Source: Octopus vulgaris (taxonomy: Eukaryota). From it: a stretch of DNA of 64,000 nt. The stretch lies in assembly GCA_951406725.2 (NCBI GenBank), contig OX597814.1, forward strand, positions 181,350,001 through 181,414,000. The letters are read 5' to 3'. The notes beneath the pieces were generated by a model. That model searched no databases and was not told the origin of the DNA. It was given only the letters and a program-made list of their open reading frames with translations. Of this stretch, positions 18,961 to 61,497 are shown piece after piece. The position numbers and the translations under genes were made by a program. Positions within the stretch are counted from its first letter, which is position 1; every line of letters begins with the position of its first letter.

Positions 18961-18970
18961 TTGATATATA

Positions 18971-19351
18971 GGCGCAGGAGTGGCTGTGTGGTAAGTAGCT
19001 TGCTTACCAACCACATGGTTCTGGGTTCAGTCCCAATGCGTGGCACCTTGGGTAAGTGTCTTCTACTATAGCCTTGGGCCGACCAAAGCCTTGTGAGTCG
19101 ATTTGGTAGACAGAAACTGAAAGAAGCCTGTCGTATATATATGTATATGTTTGTGTGTCTATGTTTGTTCCCCCAGCATCGCTTGACAACCGATGCTGTT
19201 GTGTTTACGTCCCTGTAACTTAGCAGTTCAGCAAGAGAGACCGATAGATTAAGTACTAAGCTTACAAAGAATAAGTTCTGGGGTCAATTTGCTCAACTAA
19301 AGACGGTACTCCAGCATGGCCGCAGTCAAATGACTGAAACAAATAAAAGAA
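18971..19351 (+). mobile_element. tRNA-derived SINE family A, full length (CORE-like domain, internal (TA/TG)n)
   Basis: A-box TGGCTGTGTGG, B-box GGTTCAGTCCC, CORE-like ggcaccttgggtaagtgtcttct and 3' end gcagtcaaatgactgaaacaaataaaaga. Many copies occur in the window. Confidence 0.9.
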
Positions 19352-28127: not shown

Positions 28128-28315
28128 AGTATCATGAAATGTCTAGGTGGAGGCCCAAACTTCCGAGTTCTTTTACGGGGCTTAGAAAAACTGAAGGGCT
28201 ACTGCAATAAGTGTGTGAATCTGAGTGGGGGAGTATGTTGAATAAAATCATAATTGACTTGTCTTCCTGTATTTTCTTTTACCTAAAGCCAGGAATTTTT
28301 CAACACCCCTTCATA
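28128..28315 (+). mobile_element. Tc1/mariner 3' remnant (transposase C-terminus and right TIR)
   Basis: Reads GLEKLKGYCNKCVNL..G.YVE* (mariner W.KC...G.Y.E end), followed by aagccaggaatttttcaacaccccttcaTA. Confidence 0.75.
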
Positions 28316-28319
28316 TATA

Positions 28320-28486
28320 TCATCATCATCATCATCATCATCGTTTAACGTCCGCTTTCCATGCTAGCACGGGTTGGACGGTTCGACTGGGGTCTGGGAA
28401 GCCAGGAGGCTGCACCAGGATCAGTCTGATCTGGCAGTGTTTCTACAGCTGGATGCCCTTCCTAACGCCAACCACTCCGTGAGTGT
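28320..28486 (-). mobile_element. 5'-truncated RTE-tailed non-autonomous element
   Basis: (cat)n-cgtttaacgtccgctttccatgctagc...aacgccaaccactccgtgagtg, the same family as 11118-11440. Confidence 0.85.
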
Positions 28487-28684
28487 ATATATGTATTTAA
28501 TATTTTCTAAAAGGTGCAGGAGTGGCTGTGTGGTAAGTAGCTTGCTTACCAACCACATGGTTTCAGGTTCAGTCCCACTGAGTGACACCTTGGGCAAGTG
28601 TCTTCTACTATAGCCTTGGGCCGACCAAAGCCTTGCGAGTGGATTTGGTAGACAGAAACTGAAAGAAACCCGTCGTATATATGT

Positions 28685-29048
28685 ATCATCATCATCATCA
28701 TCGTTTAGCGTCCGTTTTCCATGCTAGCATGGGTTGGACGGTTCTACTGGGGTCTGTGAAGCCAGAAGGCTTCATCAGGCCCAGTCAAATCTGGCAGTGT
28801 TTCTATGGCTGGATGCCCTTCCTAACGCCAACCACTCCGTGAGTGTAGTGGGTGCTTTTTATGTGCCACCCGCACAGGTGCCAGACAGAGCTGGCAAACG
28901 GCCACGAACGGATGGTGCTTTTTACGTGCCACCGGCACGAGGCCATTCGGGGCGGCGCTGGCAACAGTCGCGAAACGGAAGGTTCTCTTACATGCCACCG
29001 GCACTGGTAACACATCTGCAATTTCCATTGATCGATTTCGATTCTGAT
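28685..29048 (-). mobile_element. RTE-tailed non-autonomous element with three tandem internal units, nested in SINE A
   Basis: (cat)n tail, aacgccaaccactccgtgagtgtagtgggtgc, and three tgccacc.gcac units. Confidence 0.85.
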
Positions 29049-29054
29049 CCTCCT

Positions 29055-29201
29055 CATCATCGTCGTTTAACGTCCGTTCTCCATGCTAGCATGGGTTGGA
29101 CGGTTCGACCGGGGTTCTGGGAAGCCAGAAGGCTGCACCAGGCTCCAGTCTAATCTGGCAATGTTTCTACAGCTGGATGCCCTTCCTAACGCCAACCACT
29201 C
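29055..29201 (-). mobile_element. 5'-truncated RTE-tailed non-autonomous element, nested in SINE A
   Basis: 29064-29201 appears identical to 11135-11272. Confidence 0.88.
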
Positions 29202-30192
29202 ACTTGCATATATATATATATATGTTTGTGTGTCTGTGTTTGTCTCCCAACATCACTTGACAATCGATGCTGGTGTGTTTATGTCCCCGTAACTTAGGCT
29301 TACAAAGAATAAGTCCTGGGTTCAATTTGCTCGATTAAAGGCAGTGCTCCAGCATGGCTGCAGTCAAATGACTGAAACGAGTAAAAGTAAAACTACATAA
29401 AGACTAGGCTTCCTACTTAAGGCTAGACAATATTTCAACCATTGTCACTTGCTGACCCTCTATAAAAGCTCAAGTAAGACTCACACTGGGGTATTGGTCA
29501 CCTGTCTCAGAACAGTACTGCTGCTACTACTCACACAAACATCCAAGATGCTTCTTAAGAGATGAGTAAATACTCACTCACCATAACACTACAATCTACT
29601 CGTGCATGTACTATTTCCACTCTTTACCTCTTCAGCCACTACTTCAACAGACTTTCACCATCTATTGCTAACCATAATTCCTCCTTAGATGATTCATCTT
29701 TATTGTTATTTCATCATGCTGCTCAAACTTTTTTTGTATCCCATCTTCTTACCAAGAGCCACTGTTATCACTGTCACTCTTCCATTACTCTCCCTCTCTA
29801 CTATCCTATCACTCCTTCCTCTTCATCACACTCATACTTTCTCCACTTTCGCCATCTTGATCATTGCTTTCATGTATCTCAGATACATTTGGCATGAAAA
29901 AATGGAGATGATATGAAGAAAGTGAGGGCACTTTTGTCTTATAGAATGCTACTACTCCACTGTTGGTGTCATGATAAAAATGTAAGACACTCTGTAAAGT
30001 GGTTGATGTCAGAAATAGCATTCAGCTATAGAAACTATGCTAAAATGGCACATATGAGCAAGACATGGCCCACTGATCCATCTAGAAGAGTATATCCAAA
30101 TAAGTGACTTTAATGACCTCTCCAGCCCATGAGAGTATGAGTAATGGATGTAAAATGATGATGAAAATGATGTATGTATGTATGGTATTGTT

Positions 30193-31224: not shown

Positions 31225-31487
31225 GAGCAGGCGTAGCTGTGTGGTAAGAAGTTTGCTTCAGCCCTCATTGTGTGGCACTTTGGGCAAGTGTCTTCTACTA
31301 TAGCCTCGGGCCTACAAAAGCCTTGTGAGTGAATTTGGTAGATGGAAACTGAAAGAAGCCCATCATATATATATAGGTGTATGTATTTGTGTCCCCCTGC
31401 CACCACTTGACAACCAGTGCTGGTGTGTTTACTTCCCTGTAATTTAATGGTTCAGCAAAAGAGGCTGATAGTATCAGGCTTTTAAAA
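31225..31487 (+). mobile_element. SINE family A, internally deleted and 3' truncated
   Basis: gctgtgtggtaagaagtttgc...ggcactttgggcaagtgtcttctactatagcctcgggcc matches family A. Confidence 0.85.
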
Positions 31488-35045: not shown

Positions 35046-36009
35046 TATTAATACCTCTACATCTATATAACTGTCTCATCTTCCCAATATTGTACAAGAA
35101 AATTAAAAATAAAATATCTCCAGGTATCACTGAGACTGCTAACCACTGTATATCTGTATAATGATTAGGGAAAGTTCACTCTTACTGATATAAGCTTTAT
35201 CAAGAAGATGTGATTGGGCAGTTTAAAAGACACAATTTTTTAAAATATTTTCTATTGCTTGCTTACTTATACAGGAGAAAGTGATAAACCTATTGCCACA
35301 TTAAAGAGGTTACTAATTTACAACTTGATGAATTTGCACTGTTTTTTATAGTTCTTTAGATTTAATAAGTTCCCCTAGCTAATGTTTATACTTCCTATTT
35401 TCAGTGCCTCTTTGAAATTCTTATTATTGATATATTTTATTATGTATATGTAGGGACTAGGGACAGGCAATGTTGTTGGTAGAGCAGAGTTGCATAGAGT
35501 ACTCTTTATGGGTAGATAAGTAGTTATATCATGGTGGTCAGCTTTGCACTTCATTATGCTAGTATCATTAAGATAAAAGCCATTTTAGTCAATTGGATGT
35601 ACTTCCATCCTAACAAACCATTGGTTATGTAAGAAATAAGGAAATAAAGTATGCATCCAAATATCCTTCTTTCCCAAGCTTGAGATCCTTTTTAGATGTT
35701 TTATCTTTCATATGTCTTTTTATTAGTTAGTATGAGGAATTGGCAGAAGAGGAGCACTCTCAATAGTGAGAGATAATATAGCAGCAGAGTAAGTTTAATA
35801 CAGTTGATATTCAGTTGGAATTGTAACTTATGGTTTGAGAAGAAAATATAGACTGGAACAGAATTTCAATGGGATACAAATCCAAAGAGAAATAGGAAAA
35901 AGTGTTTCATACTTGATGGGAATTAAAATTAATACCAGTTGTATTAAGTAGCAAAGCATAACTTGTAAAATATTATGGAGGGGAGGGGAACCTACATTCT
36001 CCAAATATA

Positions 36010-36360
36010 GGCACAGGTGTGGCTGTGTGGTAAGAAGCTTGCTTCCCAACCTCATGGTTCCGAGTTCAGTCCCACTGCATGGCACTTTGGACAGGTGTCT
36101 TCTGCTATTGCCTCAAGCCAACCAAAGCCTTGTAAATAGATTTGGTAGATGGAAATTAAAAGAACTATGTTGTGTATGTGTGTGTGTATTTGTGTCTGTT
36201 TGTCCCCCACCACCTCTTGATATGTTGGTATGTTTACATCCCCCATAACTTAGCAGGCTTTAAAAAAAGATAAGTACTGGAGTCAATTTATTTGACTAAA
36301 AATTCTTCAAGGCAGTGCCAAAGCATGGACACAGCCTAATGACTGAAACAAATAAAAGAT
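36010..36360 (+). mobile_element. SINE family A, near full length
   Basis: Runs from ggcacaggtgtggctgtgtggtaagaagcttgc to taatgactgaaacaaataaaagat. Confidence 0.88.
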
Positions 36361-39300
36361 AAAAAATAAAATACAAAATTTTGTCCTTTCAAGAGAGTTA
36401 AAAATGTAACAATTTTTTTTGAAAAATTAACAAAGCATTTAGCACGGCATTTTTAGGAAATGTACTTGAAGAAGCTAATACTGATTAATATGAGCAGCAT
36501 TATTTGGTTTTTTTTTGTTTTTGTTTTTTTTTTACATTTGCTTTTTCATTCTAGAATAAGCTAACCATTTCTGAAAATTGAAACCTTTCATAAATTTGGA
36601 GACACTATAATTTTGCATCTATAAGCACACATTTGAAAACTAATATTTGTTTTGAGATCATTTGAGACAATAACAGAAATTCACTGAATGTTTCTGAATC
36701 CATTGCTAAGCCAGTGGTAATTTAAACAGTCAACCATTTGGTTTATTTATTAGTCCAGTAACTTAACTATTTAACTAGTCTATCTTGTGTATGAAGACTC
36801 TTGAAGGTGATGTGTGATAACTAATCAGTTGTTTGAACTTGTCAACCTGTATATAACATTATTTTTTCAAATACAAAATTGTATATTATATTGCATAATA
36901 ATGATAAAAAATAAAACTAACATTGAAATTTGTAAAGAAAGTAGATGTAATTTAAGTTTTAATGAGGAAAAAATTGAGAATTTGATATTGACTAGTAGCA
37001 TATTTAATTTGATTTTGAATATTATATCAAGCAGTATCATTGTATTGCTTTTATACTGATCTTTTGTTTGTCTTTCCCACACGTGCATGCACATATACAA
37101 ATACAACTTATAAAATATAATCTGACAATTATATTTTATAATTAGAATAAATGAAATAAAGAAAATTCAGTAATTATTACATTCATTGTAATTAATATAA
37201 AGCAGATTTTTATAAGATTTAAATTCAAGTTTCTTTTAAATTATATGTCCAAATGTGCCATTGTCATTTTCTTTTTAACACAAGTTCTGAATTTTTTATG
37301 ATAATGTCTAGTAAAAAGCTTTTTTTTACCATATTTGGTAAATATAACTTATAGTAATCATCATCGTTTAATGTCTGCTTTCTATGCTGGTTTGGGTTGG
37401 ACGGTTTGACTTAGGACTGGCAAGCCAAGAGGCTGTACCAGGCTCCAATCTGATCTGGCAAGGTTTCTACAGCTGGATATATCTTTAATACAACATAATA
37501 GTTTTATGTATGTTGTGAAAAATCTAATAAAGAGTTATTTATATTTAAACTGTAACTATAGTTTACATTGCACTGTGAATAATGAACTTACAAAAATATG
37601 AAATTTCATGAAAATTGACCCTTTGTAGGCATTGATTGTCTAAGGTAAAAATGTCATTTTTATATAGCTACCTTAATGATTAAGGGTTAGAAACATTAGC
37701 ATGAATACAAGCCATTTACAAGCTTTACAACTTCTGGCAATGCTCTTTTTGTATTATAATAGATACTATTGGGAGCCCATCCTAAAATAGTTTGAGTTAT
37801 TATCAGGATCTAAGCTATAATAAAGCTGTTGTAAAAAATTGTTTTGACAGTGTTGCACATGCAAAACTAGCTTGCGCTAAGATAAAACTCCAGTTGCTGC
37901 TATAAGTTAGCTAATTTTGGAATGTTTTAAATAAACAAATCTCAATGAGAAGGGAAAATAGCATATCTTTAATCTAAAAATAAGTATTAAAAAAAAGGAA
38001 AAGAAAATATTTACTATAGCTTCACATAAATTTGTTAATTAATTCTGTTTAATGTTCAGACAATTTTATATGTGCAAGATCTAATTTAACAGTTTTATTG
38101 TATTATGTTTGTGTAAAGTAGTGTGGGATTATAATTATTTACTAAAAGTATGACTGCGTTTCTTATCCGGTCTATTTCATTAGACATATTTGGAGTATCT
38201 CAAATTTATCTTCATACAAGCTTCTGTTTGATATATAATTCCAATACTATTTTCTCATTAACAATGTGTGAAAAATTCTGCATCTTTTTCCAGGTTACTA
38301 TTGACAGTTATATATCTATTCCTTCTATTATAAAACTTGCAGGTCACTTTCTTTTGTAACTAGGCAGGGGAATATTTGATTGCAATTCTTTAGGTTCCAT
38401 TTCACTGTTTTTTGTTTATATCTTCAATAATTTCAAAATTGATTTCACAGCAATTTTTAGAATTTTATTTTCAAATAGTGATATACTATTACTGGTTTAA
38501 CTAAAAGATTTTTTTGATGTGTTTTTGGAGTGAAAAAATATTATAAAACCTTTTTGTAAGCTATTCGAAAGAGTGAGTTGGGTAATAATGGGATACAGTG
38601 GATTATAATTCCTAAGACAAGGCTAGAAACTGCTGAGAAGCAACTATAATTTTAAATTCTTTAGAAAAGAGACAAGGTTAGTATAGCTCAGAGTGGACGA
38701 AAGGCTACAGGTTATGAGTACTAGCAGATTTGCTCTTAAAGCATATCACTTTGTATTTTCTTACCCAATTGAAAATATAAATGGATATATGTCATTCTGC
38801 TAATAAGGGCAAAAGTCTGTGAATTTTTTTTTTCAAGAGTTTCATTTAACATACATAGAAAATATTATGATGGAATAATGTTGAAATATTTCAACTTGCC
38901 ATTAATAGAGGAAGCACAATTGGGAAGAAAACACAATAGCTACTGTCAACTTTGTGATAGGCATGACAATTGCCTATCACATTTGATAACCATCAAACTC
39001 AACAATTCTGATGTCGTTTATTTTGTTACATCACACAATTAGTGGTTCAGTACATTTTTTGGTAGCTATCTCACATATAGTAGACATCTTCCTCTGACTT
39101 AAACTTCAGCCATTTCACAAAATTCTATAACCTGTTAGTTTATATTTTAATTATATGTAATTTTAGGGAACAACTAACTTTTAAACATAGATCATCTAAT
39201 TGTAAACAGAAAAATTTAATAAAATAGAAAACAAATGAGAAACCCCTAGACTGTTCCACTCTATTTATATCTAACAACAGCATAACTTTTCTGAACATTT

Positions 39301-40578: not shown

Positions 40579-43094
40579 TTATAAGGAATAGGATGGCTAC
40601 AGCTCAGCATAATTGAAGGAAAACATGGGAGAGAAAATAATTTCATATGCAATAGTCTTTAGATTCTTTCTTTGAATTAAAAAAGATCACTTAAGGAATA
40701 AACTGAGTTAAGATGTAAATACTAATGTTGGGTAGCCTTGTATCTTTGTTACAAGATACCTGGGCTTGTTCTTACATCACACACACTAGCCTCTCAACAC
40801 CTGGCATAGAATCATTGCCCTTCCTCCCTCTTTCAAATACTAACCTTCCCAACCCCCATTTAGTTTTGGGAGCTTTTTCCTTTCTCTCTCTCCCCATCCC
40901 TTGTTCTTTATTGTTCTCGCAAGTTACTTGGCAACCTTGCTAGTGCCAGTGACATGAAAAATGACCTAGTACATTCTGTAAAGTGGTTGCCAAAGCTGAC
41001 ACTGGAGTCCAACTTGGCCCTACAGCTCACCCGAGCCTGTCAAACTATGCAACCTCTGCCAGCATGGAAAATGGACATTAAATGTTGAGTATGATGTTGT
41101 ATTTAAATATGAGCACATATGAAATGAGAAGTGGTAAATAAGTGCTATAATGATCTCATTGTGTAATTCTTGATAGAAGTTTCCATGTATTACAAAAGAT
41201 CCCTACTTTCTAACATCCATAGGTCTTGGCCCTAATATTTTATGGAGACCATTTATCTCTTCAGGTAACTGTAGGCTCATTTCATTTTAATAACATTTGA
41301 TACAAAATTTAACTATTATTTACTCCTGTCTTATAATGAGGAGTTGCTCTGAGGATGAATAAAAGTGGGCAGAAAATTACCATGTTCAATAAAACTTCTT
41401 AAAACTTGTCCAACACTGTGGTAGACAAAGAAGAATTATATTGAAGCAAACTCTAATCTGTCTTTGAATTAATAAAGTTGTAATAGGGGAGGGCAAAGAA
41501 TTTCACTAATGTTTGAGGTGAGGAGCTGGGATTTGCCAATTTAAAACTGCTAGTCTTCTCCACAGTTTTGATGGTTGAAAATAAAATATTGTATTTTATA
41601 AGTTAGAAATTAAAACAACCCACAGTGTTAGTGCATTGATTAATTTTGTGCACTTATGTTCACCAGGAATCAATCTGTTTCACTTCATAATGGAATGGGA
41701 ATGTACCAGGGATAGTATCTAGCAATAGAATACCTGCTTTATTCTAAAAGCAAGTATCAGTGTAGTTGTCTGAAAGGAACTCAGGCAAACATGACAGAAT
41801 ATAAGTAAAGCCCAGGATTATGTGATCTAATGCTCAAGAATGTTGGACAATGAAATATTAGTCAGTTGACTATTTTCTCAAATGGAAATACTGTAAACAG
41901 TGCATTGTTAACACACATTGTATAAATGAACATGAGTAGCTTTCTTAGTTAAATATCTACAATTGAAAAGGATTCTATCAGTAATGTATGCTAGTTAAAT
42001 TCTCTCCTCTCTCTTTCTTTCTCTCTCTCTCTCTCTTTCTTTCTTTTGACCTTTAATTCCTTTGTGCAAAGAGGAAATGGCATCTTAGTAAATCTTAATT
42101 GCACTCTCATATCTACAACTGAAGAAACACTGATCTAAGTATATTAAAATAAATAAAAGGAAGTAGTAGTCATCTCCAAGGCACTGCCAACTACTTTCAC
42201 TGAGAACTTCCTTCTCTTAGCAAATGCACCAACATTATCAACAGTTTGGAAAATACCATCATTGATACTTTGGGAACTACTATCACCATCCTCATCATCA
42301 TCATCATCACTATAAGCTGTCACAAGGAAGTTTTAGCATTGTCATTTGACATGCTGGAAATAGCAACCTATCTTCCTTCATAAAAAAAGAAAGGGCATAT
42401 TGGATAATGTAATGAGGTGGTTATGACTGAGATACTTTTGGTCATAGTTCTGCTTGATCCAAGTTAGAGTTAAGTAACAAAAAAGCATCACAACATCATA
42501 GTGCAGTTGCAATAAGTTTTAATTATTTAATGTTTACAAGGAAATGTGAAAACGGGTTTTTAAAAGCCTGGAAAATACTAATTGCCAATCATTAAATTTT
42601 GTCTGAAAACACAAGATCATTGGGTAAACCAAAGAACTGTTCCTCTTCTCCATTTAATTTCTGTTAGCTGTTTCTCAATGCAATAAATTGTCTCCCCACG
42701 CTTCTTTAACTTCAATTTCCAGACTGGCTGTACATTGTGTTCTTGAGCAAAACACTTTATTTCATGTTACTCCAGTCCACTCAGCTAGAAATAGGTAAGT
42801 TTGGGAGGGATTGGCATACAAGGGTGAGATGATAACTTTGGAAAATCACCTAAATGAGGTCTTGTGAGCCACATTTTGTATTCAGTGAGTAAAAGAATGA
42901 ATAGTACAACCTGTACTGTGAATCAGACTGGTTGGGACTGATTATTCAACTTCGTCAAAGGTCAATCAGTCAGTCAGTTAATCAAATCTTCATCTATTAA
43001 TTTTCATATCTTCCAATCCTTTAATGCTCTCAAATCTACAGAATTTTATTTTTATTCATGTATTTACTTTGTCTAGAGGAGAAACAAACACACA

Positions 43095-43270
43095 CACACA
43101 CACTTACATAGAGGCTTCTTTCAGTTTCCATCTACAAAATCCACTTGCAAGATTTTGGTCAACCCAGGGCTATAGCAGAAGATGCTTACCTAGGCTGCAA
43201 CACAGCAGGATTGGACTCGAAACCTTGTAGTTGAGAAGCAAACTTCTTAACCACATAACTACATCTGCAC
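43095..43270 (-). mobile_element. SINE family A 5' half, inverted
   Basis: ggcttctttcagtttccatctacaaaatccacttgcaag...aaccacataactacatctgcac is the reverse complement of the family A head. Confidence 0.8.
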
Positions 43271-43342
43271 TTTTGTATGTATGCATACATACATAAATAT
43301 ATATACATACGCACACAAACAAACATATATATACATGTATGC

Positions 43343-44226: not shown

Positions 44227-44564
44227 AGTATAGGAGAATGTAGGGTGAAATTATTTACTTATAGCATCTTTATATGTGATTCAATAACAATTACAGTTGT
44301 CACATGTAAAGGCACTATAAATAAATAACTTCAGCCTGTATACTCTGACAATTACAGTCAGCAAAGTTGTAACATGGAGCCATGCTACAAGTATGGTACC
44401 ATAATTCCATGTTCTTCCCAGAACATAATGAAATATATGGAGCGCTAGCTGATGGACAGGTGACACAACTTGTCCCAAATCCCATTTAGGGGCAATGGAC
44501 ATTAGTGTTTTATCATTTTTGTTGTTTATCAACATCAATTTATATATATATATATATGTGTGTG

Positions 44565-44812
44565 TATTAAGACTACCATTGGTTTTGATGTTAAGAAGAT
44601 TATCTCAACAATTTTTCAAGCCATCACATGGGGGAATGGTGTTTGTCTCCATAACAGAGATGAACACCATTCCTCCATGTGATCAGCTTGAAATATTGTT
44701 ATGATATTAAGATATTTTTCTTAACATGAAAACAATGGTAACTTTAATAAACAAATAAAGAAATTTTATCCACCAATGTAGTGTTGAGCACTCATTCTCA
44801 TTGTTCAACATT
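44565..44812. mobile_element. Palindromic Penelope-like derivative with a degenerate hammerhead-like motif
   Basis: Arms 44565-44649 and 44657-44749 enclose the loop cataaca. There is a one-sided tail to 44812 and flanking (TA/TG)n and (CA)n. The terminus is shared with 46255-46297. Confidence 0.6.
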
Positions 44813-45224
44813 TACACACACACGCACACATATAATAAATCATCATCTACATACTAAATAATGAGAATCAAAACAGTTGATTTGCGTACTTGTTCATAAT
44901 ATATTCTGGCAGATTCAAATGTGAATATGCTAGTCAACATGTTAGGTGTGTATGTGTGCGTACTTATACGTATATATATATATACACATGTAAATATGTA
45001 TGTATGTATATGCTCAGTAGCTAACAAAACAGAAATTAAATGTAGCTACCAAACCAAATTTAGATCAGATCTGCCTTAAAAAATGAAAGTACAGTTGGAT
45101 AATGTAGTTCTAGGTTATAACTGTAATGTTGGTCATAAGTTTAGTCAATCAGAGCTGACTTGTAGCTAAACAACTGTAAGAGCTAACTTGCTGGAATGTC
45201 TATGAACACCATGGGAACATGCTA

Positions 45225-45470
45225 TTCATGTCCATGAGGAAACTGGCTGTTGTATTTAATATTAGCAAAGCCTGTTACTAAGTATGATATGTAAACCTTG
45301 GAGCCAAATGTGTTTTTGAATTAATAAATTAATTATCTGGATCTAAAACTTTCACACTGATCAATGTTTTCAAGGGCCTGTCATCTTCCTAAAATTAGTT
45401 ATCTCATATCAATCCTCACTAATCCTATTACAGACTATGTAAATAACTTGACTTTATATCCTTCTTTTTA
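45225..45470 (+). mobile_element. Very old LINE reverse-transcriptase relic
   Basis: gctgttgtatttaatattagcaaagcc (AVVFNISKA, like DISKAFD), caagggcctgtcatc (like QGSVI) and tatgtaaataacttgact (like YADDST) occur in the expected order. Confidence 0.4.
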
Positions 45471-46561
45471 CATCCCACTTCTAAGTCCTGTTCACTTCCA
45501 AATTTCAAACTTTGTCAAATACACATCAAGATGACTGTTTTTCCTTTTTTTCAAAACTAAAAAGTTTTATCTATGAACAACTATAATACTCCTCAATTCC
45601 CAAGTATGTTCATTTGCAGAGCACTGTCTCTCTTATAGCTTTGCACAAGGCTTTTTATCATTGGCTATTCCTCTCTTTAACTGAACCACTTTTAATTCAC
45701 TTTGGTAAGAGGATCTCCAGGGACACTAGATGATCTCCATTTTCTTTAGTCAAGGAAAATGAGGGAAAAAAATCTTATTTTTATTTTATGATTTCCCTTT
45801 TAGTTGCAATCATATTTTTTCTGCTTCTGTGTTTAGTTTGGTCTGGGTTAGAGGTTTTATTTCTTTAAGGGCATCTTATAATGACACAGTTTAGCATAGT
45901 CTACAATAACATATGGCTTAATCAAATCTTAAAGATGAATTTATTGTTGATCTCTTTTGTGTTGCACCAAATTTCTATTGTACACTATAAATATGCTTCT
46001 TATGAATCACTTGCAACCTTGATTTTTATCCATAATATTAATCATTTCACTTCTTTTATGTCACAATTTATACACAATTTTTATACACAATACACAATTT
46101 GTACACAATTTTATTTTACTCACTCATAAATCGAAGCTTATGTAAAAAAAAAAATTTGTTGCTTCCATTTAGGTATCAAGATTTAACAGCATTTGCAATT
46201 TAATTTTTCATTTCTCCATGGGAGATATATATATATATATATACATATATAACATGAACAGTGAGAATGAGTACTCAATAGTGGATAAATATTTTTTACT
46301 TGTGGATCAAAAGTGTTACCAATGGTTTCATCTGGAAAGAATTTCTACACTTTTCCAAGTGTTCAGTTAAAAATGTTGGTAATTGCCTCCATTTTGGATG
46401 GGACAACTCGAGATTACACAAGATAATTCATGACATCAAAATTAATAGATACACAGATAAACATAAGCAACTTATTTAGAGACTTAATTAACTATTATTG
46501 ATATTGAGCTTTTTGCAAGAATTTGTATTCAACACAGATTAATTGCATTATCCATGTGCAC

Positions 46562-46604
<43 letters not shown>

Positions 46605-46606
<2 letters not shown>

Positions 46607-47050
46607 GGAAATGAAGAAAATGCTGACAAAATAATTTAAGTAAGGGAGAGTGTATTTAATTAGGTGAAAGTTCTTTTTACCGGTTGCGCATTTGTTATGC
46701 TTATCAAAAGATATTTTTTTAAGAGAGATAGAGTTCCTTTCTGATAGATTTTTTTTTCTCTTATCTGACTTTATGTTGGGTTTGCTGTCTCTTATGAGAC
46801 TTTATGTTGGGTTTGCTGTCATAAGAGACAGAAAACCCAACATAAAGTCAGATAAGAGGAAAAAAATCTATCAGAAAGGAACTCTATCTCTCTTAAAAAA
46901 ATATCTTTTGATAAGCATAACAAATGCGCAACCGGTAAAAAGAACTTTCACCTAATTAAATACACTCTCCCTTACTTAAATTATTTTGTCAGCATTTTCT
47001 TCATTTCCTTTTTTTATATATCACAACTCGTGTTCCACATCTCCTTTTTA
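46605..47050. mobile_element. Young near-perfect palindrome (~192-bp arms), Penelope-like derivative inserted in (TA)n
   Basis: 46605-46797 and 46819-47010 are reverse complements with about 3 differences by eye. There is a one-sided tail to ~47050 and (TA)n on both flanks. Confidence 0.8.
46904..46943 (+). ncRNA. Variant minimal type I hammerhead-ribozyme-like motif (mirror copy on the minus strand at ~46668-46710)
   Basis: tctt-TTGATAA-GCAT aacaa ATGC-GCAA-CCGG-TA-aaaaga has hammerhead topology with a U3-A8 core, a 4-bp helix II and a palindromic CCGG loop III. A13 is C. Confidence 0.5.
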
Positions 47051-47075
47051 AATATATATATATATATATTCTAAA

Positions 47076-47345
47076 TGTACAGTATTATATATCCATTCAC
47101 CCAATCTTTCTTACCAGTTGGTTTCACACTAGGAGTTCAATGAGGTGTTAGGTGACAGCCTGATTATGTGACCCTGCACTGCTATATTTCATTTCATAAC
47201 TGCCATCTCTGAAGAGTGCAGTGTTACTTAACACTCCATTGAACCCCTAGTGTGAAACTGGTAAAATTGGCTGTAATGGATATATAATACTGTACACTTT
47301 GATCAGTATACCCACTCTATTGACAAATATATGAGTGCATATTTT
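47076..47345. mobile_element. Palindromic Penelope-like derivative with a canonical hammerhead core
   Basis: Pairing arms tgtacagtattatatatccatt / aatggatatataatactgtaca and gtttcacactagg.gttcaatg / cattgaac.cctagtgtgaaac; adjacent to (TA)n. Confidence 0.7.
47202..47271 (+). ncRNA. Decayed minimal hammerhead ribozyme
   Basis: gccatct-CTGAAGA-gtgcag...ctagtgt-GAAA-CTGG-TA-aaattggc has both core boxes intact; helix II and loop III look CpG-decayed. Confidence 0.55.
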
Positions 47346-48848
47346 CTTTTGACAGTTTCTTAGATGATACAAATATGTATACATGTACATTTATGTATAT
47401 AACATGCAACACATACCTGCATTTTGTGGATGTATATGCATCCATATCTTGAACATAAAATAGTCACTGAAATTCTAAGTTCAAAAAAATATAAGTTACA
47501 AATCATGTGATATCTTAAATATATGTGTTATGTATAACACATGTGTAATCTCATATAGTCCTATCCAGAATGGTGGTGATTACCAACATTTTTAAGTGAA
47601 TATTTGAAAAACTGTGGAAATTCTTTCCACATGACATCATTGATAGCACTGTTAAACCACATATATGAAATAAAATTAGGTAATTTCACATATTGTTGAA
47701 GTATGTATCACTGCATTTAGTTTCTACTAACCAACCACCAAGTAATAGTTCAGAGTGAGGCAAGTAGAGGAAGTGAAGCTTGCCTGAAGCCACAGCACAC
47801 ATGCTGTAGCAAGGCTTCATGCCCATGTAATTAATATTTGAACACATCAGCCACTGTGCTTTTTCTTTCAACTTTTAATTCCCTCTTTCAATGTATGTGA
47901 TACCTTCCAAATTCTGTTAAGTTTTTCTACCATTTCTATAACTAGCAATGGTATTTCTTTCTCTAGAAACAATCTTTTAAATGACTTTACAATTATTTAC
48001 ATGTGAATGGGATATTCTATAATTGAGTGGTTAGAACACGGTACCCTGGTTAATTTTATTTAATGATTTATGGCTAATCAAATCATAATTAATCACAGAT
48101 TAATTTTAAGTCTTTTTCTTACTTCTACATGCTTCAAATGCTACCCACAGTCATATGCCCCTGATATTTTCTGGTTTCCTTTGCCAAGGCAGAACAATAG
48201 AAACTATATATGTTAATTATAAGTCAAAACTGGGCTTCGTTAACATTATATATAGGACTTAGAAAAGTGTAATTAAAGATATATAAAAAAAGAAAAAGAT
48301 GAATAGGCAAGAATGAAATAAAAGGACTTTAGTTACTCTACCCTGAAATTTAATCCACAATGAATTCCATCTTAATACAAGTGTCTTAATGTATTTAATA
48401 AACCAAAAAAATTGTTGTGTAGCTTTGGATTATCACTAATTGTTGGAGTTAATATTCTGCACCTTTTAAATAAATATTTATTTATGTATTTATTTTACCA
48501 ATTTTTTTACTTATTCAGATTTAACTAGACCCATCAAATACTCAGAAAAATTCTAATTCACAATTTGAGTGACATTCTAGAAGTAAACTTAATTATTTAA
48601 TTATGTCCCTTTTATTGTAAAATACTCAGCCAATGTTGTCATTTACAGCAATGACAAGCCTGAAATTGTTCTTCTGATGGAAGATATAACCAGATGATAT
48701 AAATATTCAAAAATTTCATAGAAACTCCACTGACCTTAAGAGACTATTATTTTCATAAATAATGATTATCATCATAGAGATCCATGTTTATTGTTCGTTT
48801 TCTTCCTGATAAGATCAGTAGGAAAGTAGTTGTTCTAATAGAGTACTT

Positions 48849-49216
48849 TTTTATCTTTTCTCTTTTATTTGTTTCTGTCATTAGACTGTGGCTATGCTGT
48901 GGCACCACCTCGAAGGGTTTAGTTGAACAAATCAACCCCAGTACTTTTTTTTAAGCCTGGTACATATTCAATCAAACTTTTTGCTGAATTGCTAAGTTAC
49001 ATGGACATAAACAAACCAATGCCAGTTGTCAAGCAGTGGTGAAAGAAATACACACACACACATGCACACCCATACTCACATAAACAACAGGCTTCTTTCA
49101 GTTTCTGTCTACCGAATCTACTCACAAGGCTTTGGTCAGCCCAAGATGCCACATAGTACTACTGAATCCAGAACCATGTGGCTGAGAAGTAAACTTCTTA
49201 TCACACAGTCACACCT
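48849..49216 (-). mobile_element. SINE family A, inverted, near full length
   Basis: ttttatttgtttctgtcattagactgtggctatgctg ... ggcttctttcagtttctgtctaccgaatctactcacaaggctttggtc ... tcacacagtcacacct is the reverse complement of family A. Confidence 0.85.
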
Positions 49217-52200: not shown

Positions 52201-53049
52201 AGTTATCTCTGAAATAATTATGCTTGTGCATGCACACACACAAACACACACACATATGCACACAGTCATTCATTGATTCATATTTAAAATAAGCTTTTCT
52301 TTGTGTATGCAATAAATACTGTGAGGAGTGATAATCATCAACATATAACAAGATCAAGAATACAGAAATGCTACAAAATCTTTTGATATTTCATAATAGA
52401 TTATTAAGTAATAATGTGAATTAAACAGTTTTTATGTATTCTTAAGTGACTAAAATGACTTCAATGATACAAGGATATAAAGCATTTCAGAAACAACACT
52501 CTATCATTTCCATGATTCACCTTGAAAATATATATTTGTTGAAAATAGAATTGAGAAAATAAAGAATAAAACATGTTAATTACTTTTGAGAAAGTAAATG
52601 ATTTTGATGTTCACAATATAAATATATTCTGCCAAAGCATGATGAAATTTTTTTTTGGTTTTCCTTTTAATTTAAAAATATATTTGTTATTCATAATACT
52701 TGTAGTTTTAATTATTTAATATCACTAGTTTTTTAAGTACTAAAATATCAATTTTTGTTTATTCTGTTGAAAACTGTTTTAGAATGTTTGGCATTTTTAT
52801 CAAAAGACTCATAAATAATGAATTATTCTTTTATTTAGGAATTAATAAGAAATATAATTTTAAAGCTTCGATTATTCAAGTGTTCTTGTATAAAGTATCT
52901 AGTATTTCAAACTGATTAAAAAACTTGTAATAATATTTTATCAAATCTTCTTATTGTATTGATAACAAATAGGTGTTGTGCTTCTACCATCCGTAACAAA
53001 TATTGTCAATTGTGTTTAACTTTTTTTTCTCCATTTTTATCTTTTATAG

Positions 53050-53433
53050 AATGATGAGCAAATCTTCAACTGAAGAGAGTGAGCTTGAAACTCCTCCTCC
53101 TCTTCCGGAAAAGCAGCGCATCTCAAGTGCCACCACCTTAAACATGATGGGAAGCAGCAAAGGAGATAGCAATGGCCACTCTTCTTCAAGCCAATCCCCA
53201 CTTAGTAGCATGCTTTTTCCTAGTCCTTCTCAAGACCATTCTCTCGGTGGTTGTAGCAATAGCTCAGGACTAGTAACTCCATCCAGTCAATCGCCACGCA
53301 GTTGTTCCCCTTTAAGTCGCTCTCCCGCCAGCAGTATTGGTTCTGGTCTCAACCAATCGATGGATGATTTACTTAGCAGTAGTAATCGAAGTAGTAGAAC
53401 TAATAGTTTTTCTTATGCATCTTCAGATTCAAG
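53050..53433 (+). CDS. RAPGEF1: RAPGEF1/C3G-like exon E (Ser-rich, PPPLPEK motif), phase 2-2
   Basis: Acceptor cttttatag and donor AG|gttagc. TPPPLPEKQR and SPLSRSPASSIG...SMDDL resemble C3G SPRLSPCSSIG..SDEQL. Confidence 0.9.
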
Positions 53434-53829
53434 GTTAGCTTTCATTCTTATTTCTACATAATTTTATTTCCATATGTAAATTCATTAACTTACTTCTATA
53501 GGGAAAACAATCTTGCACCATTCATCTATGAATCAATATAGCTCAATTTAAAGTATTATAAAATTAATCCATTTGCCAACTGTATTAAAGAAACAATATT
53601 GTATTAAATAAACTATGTTTATTAATGATATTTTTCTTTTTAACTTTGCAATTGTAAATACATAAAAATATAATTTCAAAAATTTAAAAACTTTCTTTGA
53701 ATCTTAGTAAATTTTTCTAATTTTTCTATTTTTAAAAATATTTTGTCCTTTTTTTTCTCTTTCCTATTTACAAAATTTTAATCTGAAATATCAAGATTTC
53801 ATATGTTTATATCAAATGTTTAATTGCAG

Positions 53830-54347
53830 GAGTGCTACGATGGAAAGCAGTGTTGAATATGCTCTTGCTGTTGATGAAATTAACCAGCTGACCAAAAAGA
53901 TCAACCAGCTAACAACAAGCATCAAGGATGTTCCACCTCCTGTGCCTGCAAAGGGTTCAAAATCACCCCGCTTCCCATCACATTACGACAATGTACCACT
54001 GGGAGAAGGTTCTGGGGGCTTACCGGTCAGTGGCTTGGTGGGGATATGTGCTAATACTACTGGCATGAGCCAAACCATCAGTCACATGAGCAGTCATAGC
54101 ACTTCTTGTAGCAGTAGCAGTAGCCTGAATACACGCATGGTCTCTCATTTCAACAGTGCTATGGCTGGTGCCAGTGGCATGCCATCCTTCTCACACTTTC
54201 ACTCTCATAAATCCAGCTCTTATTTCTTCTCACAAAGTTCACAAGAAACCATATCCAGTTCAGAATTCTCATCTGGTATCAGTCATTCAAGTTTGGAGAG
54301 TTTACATCAGCATGGACCACCACCATTACCACCAAAGAAGAAACATA
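53830..54347 (+). CDS. RAPGEF1: RAPGEF1/C3G-like exon F, phase 2-1
   Basis: Acceptor aattgcag and donor A|gtatgt. Contains PPPVPAK, RFPSHYDNV (like human RHPSQYDNI) and PPPLPPKKKH. Confidence 0.92.
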
Positions 54348-55505
54348 GTATGTGGTTTCAAATTGTTTTTCTACATTTTTGTAATGTTACAATACTTCTC
54401 CAAATTTAGAATCTCCAAATTAAAAAAAAAATTTTTTTTTAGTAGGATAAAGAATTATACTTTATATTAAGAAATAACAAAACACAAATCTTATATACTA
54501 AAATTTATTGGGCTTCTTTTTTACTATATGGAGATGGAATTAAAAAGAAGAGTTTGGGTTATGGGAAACTGATGACCTTACCAGATAAGTAAAGCAGTTT
54601 TCATCTTGGAAAAACTGAAGTTTCATTGACTTTTACTGAAGGATTATAGATAGCCAAAAATATTGCTAAGCAAAATTAATAACATGACAAATTGCTATTT
54701 TGTTATGTTATTAATTTGCTGCCTTATTCCTATTTCACATCACACCCACATTAATGTTTTCTGTTCCTTCTTATGAATCACCATTACTTTACACCTATTG
54801 CCTGAAAAGACAAAAATGATTTACTTTTTGTCTTTCACTGCACTTTCACCTTCAAAATGTAACTGCAATGATGTTTTATTCTCACAATAGACTAATGGAA
54901 TTAGTTATTGTGAACTCATATCAGTGTATCACCACTTTCACCACCAATTGCATAAAATACAGAAACTATGTCCTCATGATCTACTCAAGTTTAATCTCCT
55001 AACTACACAGAGTTTTAGTAACCTACTGAAGCTCTCAACAGTCTACTGAGCTAATTTGGTGACATCTGATGAATAAATCAAATAACAAGCAAACAGTTAT
55101 ATACACTCATGCATTGTTATATCGGAACATTATTTTTAACAGTTAACTAATAAGGTAACAAATTTACTTGAAAGCTAAATTATTTGGGATTGATTACATT
55201 TTATATAAAGTTAAAATAAATATCACCAAATAGGTTTTCATTTGCTGTTTTCTTGAGTAGGGTCCAAATTTCATTTCATCCCCATTTCAGTATTCAAAAT
55301 TAATTTTTTAGGGTTGGGGGGATCCAAAAGTTTTTAGAATCCTATTAAATTTCTTTTCATTCCCTTTATTTTTTTCACCTACACATTTTATCACTATTTT
55401 GGTATTCATTTTGTATAGAATTGATAATAAAATAATTTTTGTCTTAGTAATAACAAATCTTTGATTTCATCATTAATATAATTCCCTTTTACGTCTGTTT
55501 TCCAG

Positions 55506-55765
55506 TTCAAACGTATATGCAAACATTTGGCTCCTGTGTGCAGCCTAATGCTACAGAATTAGCGCACATATCTCGCCGATCACTTAACTTCTTCGAGGCT
55601 GAATGGAAACATCACCAGAAAGAGTTACATAGGTCAATATATCCTCGATCTAATACTATCAGTGTCATCTCTGATATCTCTAGTGGAAGTTCAGATAATA
55701 CGTCTGGCATTGGCTCAGCTGAAAATATGGGAACTCCTCCTGCACTTCCAGCTAAATTGGGACGA
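55506..55765 (+). CDS. RAPGEF1: RAPGEF1/C3G-like exon G, phase 1-0
   Basis: Acceptor gttttccag and donor CGA|gtaagt. The junction gives KKKHIQTYMQTFG (like human KNKHMLAYMQLL), and the exon ends in PPALPAK. Confidence 0.92.
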
Positions 55766-57689
55766 GTAAGTATTCCAGAAAATAACTGGACATTTTGAAT
55801 ATTTAACATGCACAAAACACCACTGAGAAAATTGTTTGTAATTCTATTTTTGTTTAATTTATATATATATACTGTTTGGTAAAAGTTTTCTTTATAACCA
55901 TGTGATTCCAGATTTTCATTCTACTGCAATGCATGTTGGGTAAGGATCATCTATCATAGCTTCAGGCTGACCACTCTCTTACCAGTGAAATATAGTAGAT
56001 CAAAACTGCAGTCCACGTGTGTGTTTGTATATAGCAGTGTAAAATGCATATTTAAATCCATGGTAAGAGAGGTTACTCTCAGAAGGGACATAAATCTGAT
56101 CAAATTTATACTATTACATAAACATAGATATAATTAATAGCAGTCTACACCAAATAAAATAATGTTTCCATGTCATTTTGCCATCATTAACTGCTGCCTT
56201 CTTGATCTATGAGTCTTGAGGACCAAGTACTGCAGGAAACTTTTTTATGAATTAACTGGGATATCATTATTAATGCAGGAGCAGAAGAAGGAACTTTAAA
56301 AAAAAAAAAACATAAAAAATTGAGAGTTAAAGTGAAAATAGCAAAATGATTAATACTTAGAAATTTCATAGACTATTCATGAAGCAGTAGTATTAATTAT
56401 GTGTCAGAATGTGTGTTGAATGTATGAATGACATTATTCTAAAATAACCAAATTAAGTTTGTAAAAATATATAACCAGCTGGAATGATAAAAGATGTATA
56501 TGAATTTTTATATAGAGATTAGAATATAAGGCAACCTGAGTCTTATAAACACAAGATTAGAGTCTGGATTATTGGCAGAAAGTGATTCAGGTGCTGCATT
56601 GCTGTTTAAAATGAACTGCAAACATCTCTGTTACAAGCATGTTTCCTTGATTTATTAGTATTTTCTAAGAAAACAATGTTTTTCATATAAAATAATACCA
56701 GTTATCATTGCCTTCCATGCTGCCATGTGTTGGACTTACTCCAACTCACGATGGTCTTTTTTTTTTTTGTTGGAAGTCACTGTTTTCATAGATTGGTGCT
56801 AATACATGTCATTTGACTTGGCTTCTACAGTTGGATGCTCTTCCTATTGCCAACCTCTTTACTGAGTATGTTGGTGCATTTTCTTGTAGCACTAACACAG
56901 GAGCAGTTGAATAGTCTTTGGCACAAGCTGCATAATATTATATATTATTGGCTAATAACTCATTTTATACAGTGATATTTTTAACAAAATTTAAATAACC
57001 TTATATTTCAAATTTTTAGAGAAGTTATGAGGCAAAAATTATTTAATAGACTTACATAAGAGCATTTTAAATTGTATACAAAATACTAAGATATAACTAA
57101 ATAAAATAAATTATAGCTTTATGAAACCAGTCAAAATTATGATTATTTGTGAATTTAATCAAAAGCATATAGGGGCACATCTTACTTAGAAGTATAGTAA
57201 CAAAACTTTTTGTATGTGTGTGTGTGTTAATACCAGCTGGTGAATTCTCATAATGATCTAAATATATCAATCAAATTTTAAATTAATTTGCTGATGAAGA
57301 AGACTATGAATGTCAAGCAAAAGCATCATTTATAAAATATTTTCAAGAAAGGGCCTGCTAAAATTGAGCCCTAAATATACTTTTTGAGTCCTGATTATAC
57401 TTTCCAACACAGCATTTTACCATTTATTGTGTTCATTTATCATCTTCTCTATGAGGGTTGACATTCTGAGATTAAATTTCACCATTTCTGTCCATGCATG
57501 TCTTCCTTGATCTTCCTCTTCCACAGTTTCCTTCTACTTGGAATTTTCCTAGCTCTGTACCCATTTAGCATCAATACCAATGTCTTCAACTATCAAGCAT
57601 TCTACATCTGATGCCATTTTTGCCTATTTTTCTCTCAGCTCATTTACTTGATTCATTCAATTATTTTAACAAACCATTTTTGTAATTAG

Positions 57690-57826
57690 TCTTCTAACAG
57701 ACAGAGCCAAGCATCTACAATATCCAGCCAATCAGATGCCTCAATTGAAGGTCCTGCAGAAGTAGTTCGAGAAAAATCTGCTAGTATGATAGAACCGCCA
57801 GTTGTTCCACCTACAACTCCTGAAAT
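57690..57826 (+). CDS. RAPGEF1: RAPGEF1/C3G-like exon H (absent from the + strand ORF track), phase 0-2
   Basis: Acceptor ttttgtaattag and donor AT|gtaagt. The open frame is SSNRQSQASTISSQSDASIEGPAEVVREKSASMIEPPVVPPTTPE, and its phases bridge exons G and I. Confidence 0.8.
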
Positions 57827-58240
57827 GTAAGTAAAATACAATATACACTGATTCATTAGTATAACTATGTTAATGCTATAGTCATACAATGGGGTTTTAG
57901 AGTCAAACTCTTTTTTTATTTATTTAACTTTTCATCTCAGAAAACCTATGTGTATGTACATATATTTCGTAACCAGTGGACAAAGAGGTACTTGCCTAAA
58001 ATAATGTACTAATTAATTATTATACATTCAGTGTACATATACTTTTGTCAGTGTCAAATTTTGCTTTGCCCAACATAGAATTTTGGCATATGCTTGACTA
58101 TTAAAAATTAGAAGGAAGTTACCCCATTGCAAAATTTCAGTTATCCAAGTGAAAAACTGATTTTACAACTTAGAATATTCAGCAATACACACCTTCACTT
58201 TTATATATGAAGATTACTTTTGTTATTCAAGCCTTCATAG

Positions 58241-58427
58241 AAATCAATTGTCTTATAGGGAACTGAAGCGGTCATCAGCCCCTGCTGAAGTTAGTGAACA
58301 GACGAAAAAAAATGATAAATCCGTATCTCCAAAATCGGAAATCCTTAAAGATGCTGACTCAGACTTTATAGAATTGAAACCATTAGATGATGTGGATGTT
58401 TCTGATCAATTGATCAGAAAAAGACAA
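58241..58427 (+). CDS. RAPGEF1: RAPGEF1/C3G-like exon I, phase 2-0 (alternative in-frame start at 58259)
   Basis: Acceptor ccttcatag (or tcttatag) and donor CAA|gtaagt. LKPLDDVDVSDQLIRKRQ resembles the pre-REM segment of C3G. Confidence 0.85.
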
Positions 58428-58849
58428 GTAAGTATTGCATTCTCTATTTCTACACTAGAATAAGAACTTGATACACTCACCACTCTTTAAAATGAAATTT
58501 CTCCTAATCATCCTTCTTCTCCAATTTAGATATCTATAGCCTATATAGACATAGATATCTAAATTGTAATGGATGATAAATGGAAAAAAAAAATAATTTG
58601 AATTCGTAAGTTTCTTGCTCTTATTTCTCTGATCCATCTGATGAAAAATAGAGCACTGGAAAACTGAGAAAATTGCAGGATGTTAAAAGCATCAGTTAGT
58701 GTTCATGTCTGGGACACATACATTGAAATTTATATATGCTACTAAATGGTAAGTGTTGTGTAAACAGTACAATGTGCCTGTCAGAGGAAATAGTATGCTC
58801 ACAAACAAAATGAGATTTGTAGAGACTTGCTATGTTACAAATAGTCCAA

Positions 58850-60927: not shown

Positions 60928-61075
60928 AACATAACTGTGTGGTAAAGAGGTTTGTATCCCAACTACATGGTTTGAGTTCAGACCCAATGTGTAGCATGTA
61001 TATTCTACTATAGTACAGGCCAACCAAAGCTCTCAAGGCCTTGGTCACTGGAAACTAGAAGATCCCTATTATGTG
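60925..61075 (+). mobile_element. Degenerate SINE family A following a (TA)n tract
   Basis: aactgtgtggtaaagaggtttg...catggtttgagttcagaccc...ttctactatag...accaaagc matches family A. Confidence 0.65.
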
Positions 61076-61147
61076 TGCGTTTGTATGTATACTGTTCTTT
61101 CTGAGATAACATTTAAATATTTAGCCTAGTCTTGAGAAAGAAATCAG

Positions 61148-61497
61148 CCACAGGCATGACTGTGTGGTAAGAAGTTTGTTGCCCAACCACATGGTTCCGG
61201 GTTCATTCCCACTGCATGGCACCTTGGGCAACTGTCTTTTAATATAGCTTCAGGATGACCAAAGCCTTGTGAGTGGATTTGGTAGATGGAAACTGAAAGA
61301 AGCCCATTTGATGTGTATCTCACTACCATTGACAATTAGTGTTGCTTTCTTTATGCCCTTGTAACTTAACAGTTCATCAAAAAGAAGCTGAAAGAATAAA
61401 TACAAGGCTTAAAAATAAATACTGGGGTTGATTTGTTTGACTAAAGCCCTTCAAAGTGGTGTCTCAGCATGTCAATAACTGAAACAAGTAAGATAAA
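61148..61497 (+). mobile_element. SINE family A, near full length
   Basis: caggcatgactgtgtggtaagaag...ggttccgggttcattcccactgcatggcaccttgggcaa...ctgaaacaagtaagataaa matches family A. Confidence 0.88.

Follow-up and report, generated by a model that had tools for sequence, protein, structure and literature searches.

Four palindromes in TA repeats of Octopus vulgaris as probable truncated insertions of Penelope-like elements

In the sections of the literature on which we draw here, insertions of Penelope-like elements (PLEs) are described as having an inverted, 5'-truncated copy beside the 5' end and a tail of 30 to 40 bp that is often found at one end only (PMC8557442), and the same structure is given in PMC3846280, with self-priming given as the origin of the head-to-head junctions. 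The tail corresponds to the sequence between two start sites of the reverse transcriptase (RT), the PLE endonuclease prefers AT-rich DNA, and hammerhead mutants of a PLE still insert in vitro (all PMC11167929). PLEs also tend to insert into or beside earlier copies (PMC6765202), and pairs of hammerhead motifs on opposite strands, 100 to 700 bp apart, have been ascribed to truncated PLEs (PMC4209133). Here we analyze a window of 64,000 nucleotides from Octopus vulgaris (contig OX597814.1, positions 181,350,001 to 181,414,000), a stretch of AT-rich, microsatellite-rich animal DNA with dispersed repeats, in which a preliminary description had reported four hammerhead-bearing inverted repeats at window positions 44565-47661. 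We propose that each palindrome is one PLE insertion into a TA repeat, in which a 5'-truncated, hammerhead-bearing 3' end is joined head to head to an inverted tail-less copy, and we put the probability of this reading at roughly 0.8. The four palindromes are likely ordinary truncated PLE stubs rather than a new kind of element.

Repeat detection and arm alignment recovered the four inverted repeats about where they had been placed, and we refer to them as E1 (44561-44811), E2 (46255-46425 plus 47540-47661), E3 (46604-47051), and E4 (47073 to about 47372). In each of them the adjacent arms lie head to head with the motifs facing outward, and one arm is longer than the other by a tail of 30 to 57 nt (57 nt in E1, 46 nt in E2, 30-41 nt in E3, and at least 42 nt in E4). 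A unique tail on one arm had been claimed before and is present in all four, although that of E2 (46255-46300) lies beyond the limits first given for the element. Without gaps, the arms are 86% identical in E1, 78% in E2, 99% in E3 (190 of 192 pairs, one indel), and 90% in the outer arms of E4 (four gap events); E1, E3, and E4 fold with z-scores of −13.7, −42.0, and −11.1, respectively, and no shuffle folded as well. When E1 was aligned with E2, the score reached 92 and that of 200 shuffles at most 42; no other pair among the four exceeded its shuffles, and the palindromes thus fall into three families (E1 with E2, E3, and E4), in keeping with the earlier count of at least three.

The elements had been said to adjoin TA-rich microsatellites, and this holds for most of their ends. 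An alternating purine-pyrimidine run of at least 12 nt lies within 15 nt of seven of the eight ends (background, 5.0% of window positions) and a pure TA run lies within the same distance of five (background, 1.4%), but the right end of E2 has neither close by. E3 and E4 have one TA tract in common, to the right of the former and the left of the latter. The only words shared between flanks are pieces of TA repeat and no target duplication is readable; because the flanks are themselves (TA)n, a TA duplication could not be seen. The centres of the palindromes vary: that of E1 is 7 nt long, that of its sister E2 spans about 1.1 kb, and that of E3 is a duplicated stretch of 21 nt, while E4 has unequal arms.

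Other copies were read from the assembled contigs of four runs (X3, X8, X14, and X10), taken from 24 runs under five organism labels, 20 of which contain part of the region. The contigs were compared over 46798-47720 at 80% likeness, a range outside which E1 and the left part of E2 lie; X10, only presumed to be RNA, consists of contigs from which neither expression nor ends can be read. Among the 24 of 664 loose-end rows and 15 of 41 joints listed, two kinds of 3' end were found. Contigs run into (TA)n at 47021 (23 contigs in X3) and at 47303 (18 in X8 and 27 in X14), giving a short end, while others cover the E4 tail to 47345 and then continue into partly shared sequence (54, 35, and 74 contigs; agreement 0.51-0.55). 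Shared sequence also stands ahead of 46821 (three contigs, X8) and ahead of 46859 (12 contigs, X3). Contig joints on opposite strands were set aside, because the two arms of E4 can themselves yield them. One X14 contig spans 47319-47720 unbroken (21 other letters, five gaps), which places the end of the E4 tail, the spacer, and the right arm of E2 next to each other in organism E too.

These contigs complete the hammerhead of the E4 family, which is broken in both window arms and is full only in other copies. The left arm of E4 (47073-47180, minus strand), the inverted tail-less copy, is cut off inside the first core box and keeps helix II with the GAAAC-III-GTA half (47112-47125). The right arm (47181-47303, plus strand) carries the hammerhead at 47202-47271 (box 47209-47215, GAAAC 47254-47258, GTA 47261-47263) with two deletions relative to the other copies; it is followed by the tail (47304-47372, plus strand), clear to 47345 and from there, as far as about 47372, loosely similar to other copies, and by a worn TA/CA-rich tract (47373-47441) at the right end of the element. 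Loose ends before 47222 supply CTGA(T/A)GAG and about 16 nt that the window right arm has lost (38, 23, 43, and 12 contigs; all four runs), those before 47259 end in GCGAAACCGAT (65, 50, 95, and 11 contigs; all four runs), and the majority letter at 47265 is G in place of A, which by eye re-forms a pair in helix I. The restored type I hammerhead, again read by eye, has a helix I of 4 + 3 bp, CUGAUGA, 54 nt closed by G10.1-C11.1, GAAAC, a near-palindromic helix III, and GUA. An ATG in the E4 tail opens a frame (47332-47372) that by eye continues for about 15 codons into the X14 loose-end consensus (joined at 47345-47346). This frame may mark where the coding frame of the parent begins; in some PLEs the first codons lie in the pseudo-long terminal repeat plus tail, according to the part of PMC3846280 cited.

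In the sister family, E1 is bordered on the left by a (TA)n/(TG)n tract (44541-44566) and consists of an inverted tail-less left arm (44561-44649, minus strand) with a worn hammerhead motif at 44574-44619 whose second box is damaged, a right arm (44657-44754, plus strand) with a worn motif at 44688-44740 and an 8-nt insertion in helix II, and a tail (44755-44811, plus strand) that is homologous to the E2 tail and ends in a small stem-loop (z −2.5); a CA/TA tract follows at 44813-44834. E2 begins at its tail end with a (TA)n tract (46225-46250), after which come the tail (minus strand), the tail-bearing left arm (46301-46425, minus strand; worn motif 46317-46358), and, farther on, the tail-less right arm (47540-47661, plus strand), whose motif at 47604-47645 has a perfect 8-bp helix II and a GACA box. 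Elsewhere this box reads GAAA (C>A at 47635 in 13, 9, 8, and 3 contigs of the four runs). The core boxes of E1 and E2 (U3:A8) align in all four arms, helix II has eight of eight pairs in three arms and six of eight in the fourth when counted by coordinate, and between E1 and E2 three of its pairs are changed on both sides, that is, in a compensatory manner. The tail-less arms of the two elements end at about the same aligned position. A CTGAACA box in the left arm of E2 was dropped as a candidate, the TTGAAAA box being the one that aligns in all four arms.

E3 stands between a (TA)20 tract (46564-46603), its left target flank, and the (TA)9 tract that it shares with E4 (47052-47069). Its inverted tail-less left arm (46604-46797, minus strand; variant hammerhead 46678-46707) is followed by the 21-nt centre (46798-46818), which repeats left-arm sequence and lies within a 31-nt tandem duplication (46757-46820), then by the right arm (46819-47010, plus strand; variant hammerhead 46908-46937) and the tail (47011-47051, plus strand), which measures 41 nt by arm comparison and 30 nt from the short end of the other copies at 47021. 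The variant core has U3:A8, a 4-bp helix II, a GCAA box, the perfect palindrome ACCGGT, a GUA site, and a 2-bp helix I.

A relaxed descriptor that accepts C3:G8 or U3:A8, asks for at least 4 bp in helix II, and takes either GAAA or GCAA matched three window loci, compared with 0.9 on average in shuffled sequence. Once helix III also had to be a perfect palindrome, the matches came down to both arms of E3, which count as one event, and none occurred in 40 shuffles. A second descriptor found no window locus with a strict GAAA box and five with one mismatch (shuffle mean 0.43, maximum 2 in 60 shuffles), three of which are both arms of E3 and the right arm of E2. A 13-nt helix III pattern with two mismatches was not enriched (nine matches versus 6.3 expected), and single motifs folded freely gave z-scores from 0.9 to −2.4, which is expected for minimal hammerheads and proves nothing. 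Exact-pattern scans of metagenome contigs and viral contigs gave no match. Of what had been suggested earlier, the affinity with PLEs is supported, as are the outward-facing type I hammerhead with a palindromic helix III on the tail-bearing strand, the three families, and the repeated insertion into TA tracts.

Several results weigh against reading the palindromes as PLE insertions. The hammerhead motifs that had been reported in the arms are there as variant or worn forms, but an intact canonical core is found in none of the window copies, and Rfam matched nothing in the window at the gathering score. With E values of up to 10 allowed, its 56 matches in the cluster region included no hammerhead and were mostly to miRNA hairpin models. 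Helix I is weakly paired in the window copies of E1 and E2, and E3 has a C at position 13 together with its 2-bp helix I. The second descriptor was tuned after the motifs had been seen, and its two remaining loci are unrelated places. The tails of E1, E2, and E4 are longer than the usual 30 to 40 nt. We scanned 124 of the 162 stop-to-stop frames of at least 62 amino acids in the window against Pfam, the 38 omitted frames mostly overlapping dispersed short repeats or microsatellites, and among those scanned found no RT or GIY-YIG frame tied to any palindrome family. Finally, no further complete palindromic copy was seen in the contigs, and the claim that the mirror copy is made anew therefore rests on the four window copies and the contig ends.

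We hypothesize that the endonuclease of a parent PLE, a GIY-YIG enzyme as PLE biology would have it, nicked the (TA)n tract and that the RT began at either of two positions in the RNA, which would leave either the short or the tailed end. Synthesis would halt after 90 to 200 nt, and a jump or fold-back would write the inverted copy anew at each insertion. The duplicated centre of E3, which may record a template jump at the fold-back, and the unequal arms of E4 fit a junction formed at insertion. The differing centres of E1 and E2, together with contigs that run past the limits of the window copies, suggest that longer parents left these stubs. The hammerhead would act in the transcript of the parent, and the stubs themselves would be dead ends; the source RNA may have been either a complete coding element or a shorter derivative. 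TA tracts would persist at the ends of each insertion and be targeted again, and such repeated hits on persistent tracts explain the cluster without a special nesting mechanism.

Judged by arm divergence E2 is older than E3, and E4 likely falls between them, although this is less sure. The order of insertion would be E2 first, E4 inside E2, and E3 last, and E2 is likely one insertion with E3 and E4 nested within it. Repeated insertion had been proposed both beside and inside existing elements; the insertion into TA tracts stood, while nesting inside a single E2 is likely yet unproven, because the inner flanks of the E2 arms are unrelated (805 of 1000 shuffles aligned as well). An inward extension of the E2 arms was rejected on the same ground. 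The unrelated flanks would also be expected if the family had inserted twice, once on each side of a TA-rich stretch, making the cluster a hot spot with no nest, and the sister element E1 is only 1.5 kb away, a sign that the family clusters here. That explanation is unlikely all the same: one arm is tailed and the other tail-less, they stand head to head as in E1, and they are 78% alike, compared with about 64% between E1 and E2.

The families had also been proposed to be short, non-autonomous, hairpin-shaped retroelements, a reading under which the palindrome itself, with a fixed centre, would be transcribed as a hairpin RNA and copied in trans by PLE proteins. E3 is the most plausible case, with non-coding arms that are nearly identical and with 893 of 3250 X3 contigs matching the compared stretch at 99% or more, and non-autonomous PLE derivatives have been described (PMC8557442; 10.64898/2026.07.22.740005, in the portions cited). 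A second palindromic family, at 14402-14830 and 2991-3314, reaches the same centre twice. However, the sister elements E1 and E2 differ in their centres, the E3 centre duplicates arm sequence, contigs hold other shared sequence before the E3 centre and behind the E4 tail, and in a perfect 190-bp hairpin the ribozyme would be base-paired to its complementary copy. We consider a palindrome that is itself the mobile unit quite improbable, and it was the differing E1/E2 centres and the contigs continuing beyond the window copies that told against this part of the preliminary description.

The match of those 893 contigs shows that a young and numerous family lies within the compared stretch, and E3 is a young family. 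No variant row falls on the E3 motif (46908-46937) among the 40 of 77 rows listed, and both C>A sites of run X3 lie elsewhere (47482 and 47635), which makes C13 the family letter in that run. Changes such as A13 to C strongly cut hammerhead activity. A13 is counted as a conserved position of the hammerhead core in the part of PMC3088659 cited. Beside C13, E3 keeps the U3:A8 pair, helix II, and the palindrome. As a tentative possibility, E3 may be a recently expanded short non-autonomous PLE family with a fixed C13 core, which would be either a new working variant or a fold retained for dimerization or protein binding after catalysis was lost; if so, E3 would be a natural experiment on whether the spread of a PLE depends on cleavage by its hammerhead. 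In run X14 six of eight bins over E3 were uncovered and no contig joined across, a result not usable as evidence of absence. Summed contig depth over E3 was uneven and greatly exceeded that over the spacer, but this measure gives neither a copy number nor a ranking of parts.

Non-autonomous transposons at the DNA level would be another source of asymmetric palindromes, either of the HINE/DINE-1 Helentron type or as TA-targeting miniature inverted-repeat transposable elements (MITEs) with long terminal inverted repeats (TIRs), and the likeness to a hammerhead would then be incidental. According to the part of PMC4067079 cited, HINE/DINE-1 elements resemble the palindromes in their asymmetric inverted repeat (38-60 bp from the 3' end in HINEs), a 3' extension, and a nearby microsatellite, and their extension has a terminal stem-loop; E1 has such a stem-loop in its tail, the E4 tail folds with a z-score of −1.4, and a TA duplication would be hidden within (TA)n. 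The same source gives them subterminal repeats of 12-15 bp, TT targets, fixed ends, and no ribozyme, whereas here the arms are 90-195 bp, the flanks are (TA)n, the tail is optional, and folding finds no stem-loop in the E3 tail. In place of the inverted repeats at both ends that define TIR elements and MITEs, a family-specific tail follows one arm in all four palindromes. Neither the full hammerhead in other copies of E4 nor the compensatory changes between E1 and E2 would be expected of such transposons, and no transposase frame was found among the scanned frames of the window. We regard this explanation as very improbable. The preliminary description had named a lack of hammerhead topology in the families and a link to a transposase as observations that would speak against it; for E4, other copies have the topology, and the scanned frames of the window include no transposase.

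As had also been stated, the cluster has no credible open reading frame: the 11 stop-to-stop frames of at least 62 amino acids at 44284-47874 gave no Pfam match. The sole Pfam find among the scanned frames of the window is a RT like that of long interspersed nuclear elements (LINEs), at 678-1539. It belongs to a broken LINE-like RT spread over several frames of the minus strand at 261-2036 (RVT_1 at 678-971 and 889-1539), which is unrelated to the palindromes. The two copies of the second palindromic family are 88-90% alike. That at 14402-14830 has arms 82% alike, the left about 62 nt longer, while that at 2991-3314 reaches the same end on both sides, with a right arm of only 87 nt and a left arm that ends at the centre of the other copy. 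The family has no TA flanks and no hammerhead match, the 2991-3314 copy has AATT at both borders, and whether it is a PLE stub or a TIR element is undecided. A weak fifth palindrome (44234-44345; 72% over 114 columns) lies just past a (CA)27 tract, 200 nt before E1, and has no hammerhead match. Two abundant, short dispersed repeat families, resembling short interspersed nuclear elements and often adjoining microsatellites, occur in the window, with short dispersed repeats at 11117-11436, 18966-19350, 28307-29392, 31228-31460, 36005-36371, 43078-43305, 48849-49216, and 60930-61491. Exon-like frames with proline-rich motifs are found on the plus strand at 52997-58460, and two 45-nt palindromes stand between exon-like frames at 54673-54717 and 58522-58566 (84% and 91%). 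The proline-rich motifs resemble those of C3G/RAPGEF1, and the frames may belong to such a gene; ESM Atlas gave no usable match for a nearby exon. If the cluster sits in an intron of that gene, E3 would make a 190-bp double strand in the pre-mRNA.

Stubs of this kind resemble MITEs and escape Rfam and standard descriptors, the 54-nt helix II region of E4 being one example, and repeat libraries may therefore misfile them and undercount PLE hammerheads. Insertion in vitro needed no cleavage in the experiments cited from PMC11167929, and a young family with an altered core beside older families with canonical cores makes the role of these hammerheads testable. The kind of system is already known, while the three families may be uncatalogued. 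We found no paper on them, and the portion of PMC13282606 that lists octopus Penelope families has no occurrence of "hammerhead," "palindrom," or "hairpin." Nor did we find a paper that pairs hammerhead with A13C, a weak negative given that notation varies; Repbase or supplementary data on PLE hammerhead variants, including those of PMC4209133, may already hold such variants.

Close counterparts of the motifs are the minimal hammerheads that Cervera and De la Pena described from PLEs (PMC4209133, as far as cited), which share with them the U3:A8 covariation, an extra nucleotide before helix II, and the palindromic helix III. A 2-bp helix I is reported there for the PLE hammerhead of Drosophila virilis, and U3:A8 cores, including UUGAAAAA and UUGAUAAA, for Schistosoma mansoni hammerheads; a C at position 13, as in E3, was not encountered in that part of the source. 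The 54 nt between the boxes of E4 are far above the usual helix II, although PLE-X1_sMoe has a listed long loop 2. Non-LTR (long terminal repeat) retrozymes are, in the part of 10.64898/2026.07.22.740005 cited, likewise short, non-coding, PLE-derived, and equipped with a type I hammerhead. Tandem retrozymes were rejected as a match because their units run head to tail with ribozymes of the same sense, whereas the copies here are head to head and E1-E4 contain no head-to-tail tandem unit holding the motif.

Among PLE clades, the Hydra clade as represented by Hydra-1_Obim (PMC8557442, section 11 and Files S1, S2, and S7) has (TA)n targets and a hammerhead close to the 3' end, as here. Its T before GAA and odd-length helix III are the closest match to E1 and E2, and ACCA-A-TGGT is common to Hydra-1_Obim and the left arm of E1. 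The Hydra cores listed there are all C3:G8, while E1/E2 and E3 have U3:A8, and by eye the 3' end of Hydra-1_Obim belongs to another family than E1-E4. The clade is defined by protein marks (RWK and DKT motifs in the RT, an endonuclease without CCHH, and a CxCX5C linker; PMC8557442), and the comparison here is of DNA ends only. Tail words (GAGCACT and CCACTCTAT) of E1 (44781-44795), E2 (46265-46280), and E4 (47310-47322) look similar to the final 40 nt of Hydra-2_Amil when compared by eye, which may reflect a shared end signal or chance. The Naiad clade, defined by the absence of a canonical hammerhead, was set aside on the canonical core of the E4 family; the 3' ends of Naiad_Obim and Naiad_Ovul do not match E1-E4 by eye, and motif terms found nothing relevant in the part of the PMC8557442 supplement covered. 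A Hydra-clade PLE is the most likely parent, with Neptune as a less likely candidate.

The closest described counterparts of the whole palindromes are the insertion units of endonuclease-bearing (EN+) PLEs (PMC8557442, Fig. 2 legend; PMC3846280; PMC11167929, in the passages cited). Like these, E1-E4 have a head-to-head inverted copy, a tail at one end only, two 3' end points, a sense-strand type I hammerhead near the 3' end that is full in other copies of the E4 family and variant or worn in E3 and E1/E2, and no clear target duplication within microsatellites, and they differ in having only 90 to 200 nt per arm, no frame, and in three cases a tail of more than 30 to 40 nt. The proposal of an undescribed system accordingly gives way to a structure that those three sources describe for PLEs, an inverted 5'-truncated copy with an optional tail of 30 to 40 bp, here at (TA)n.

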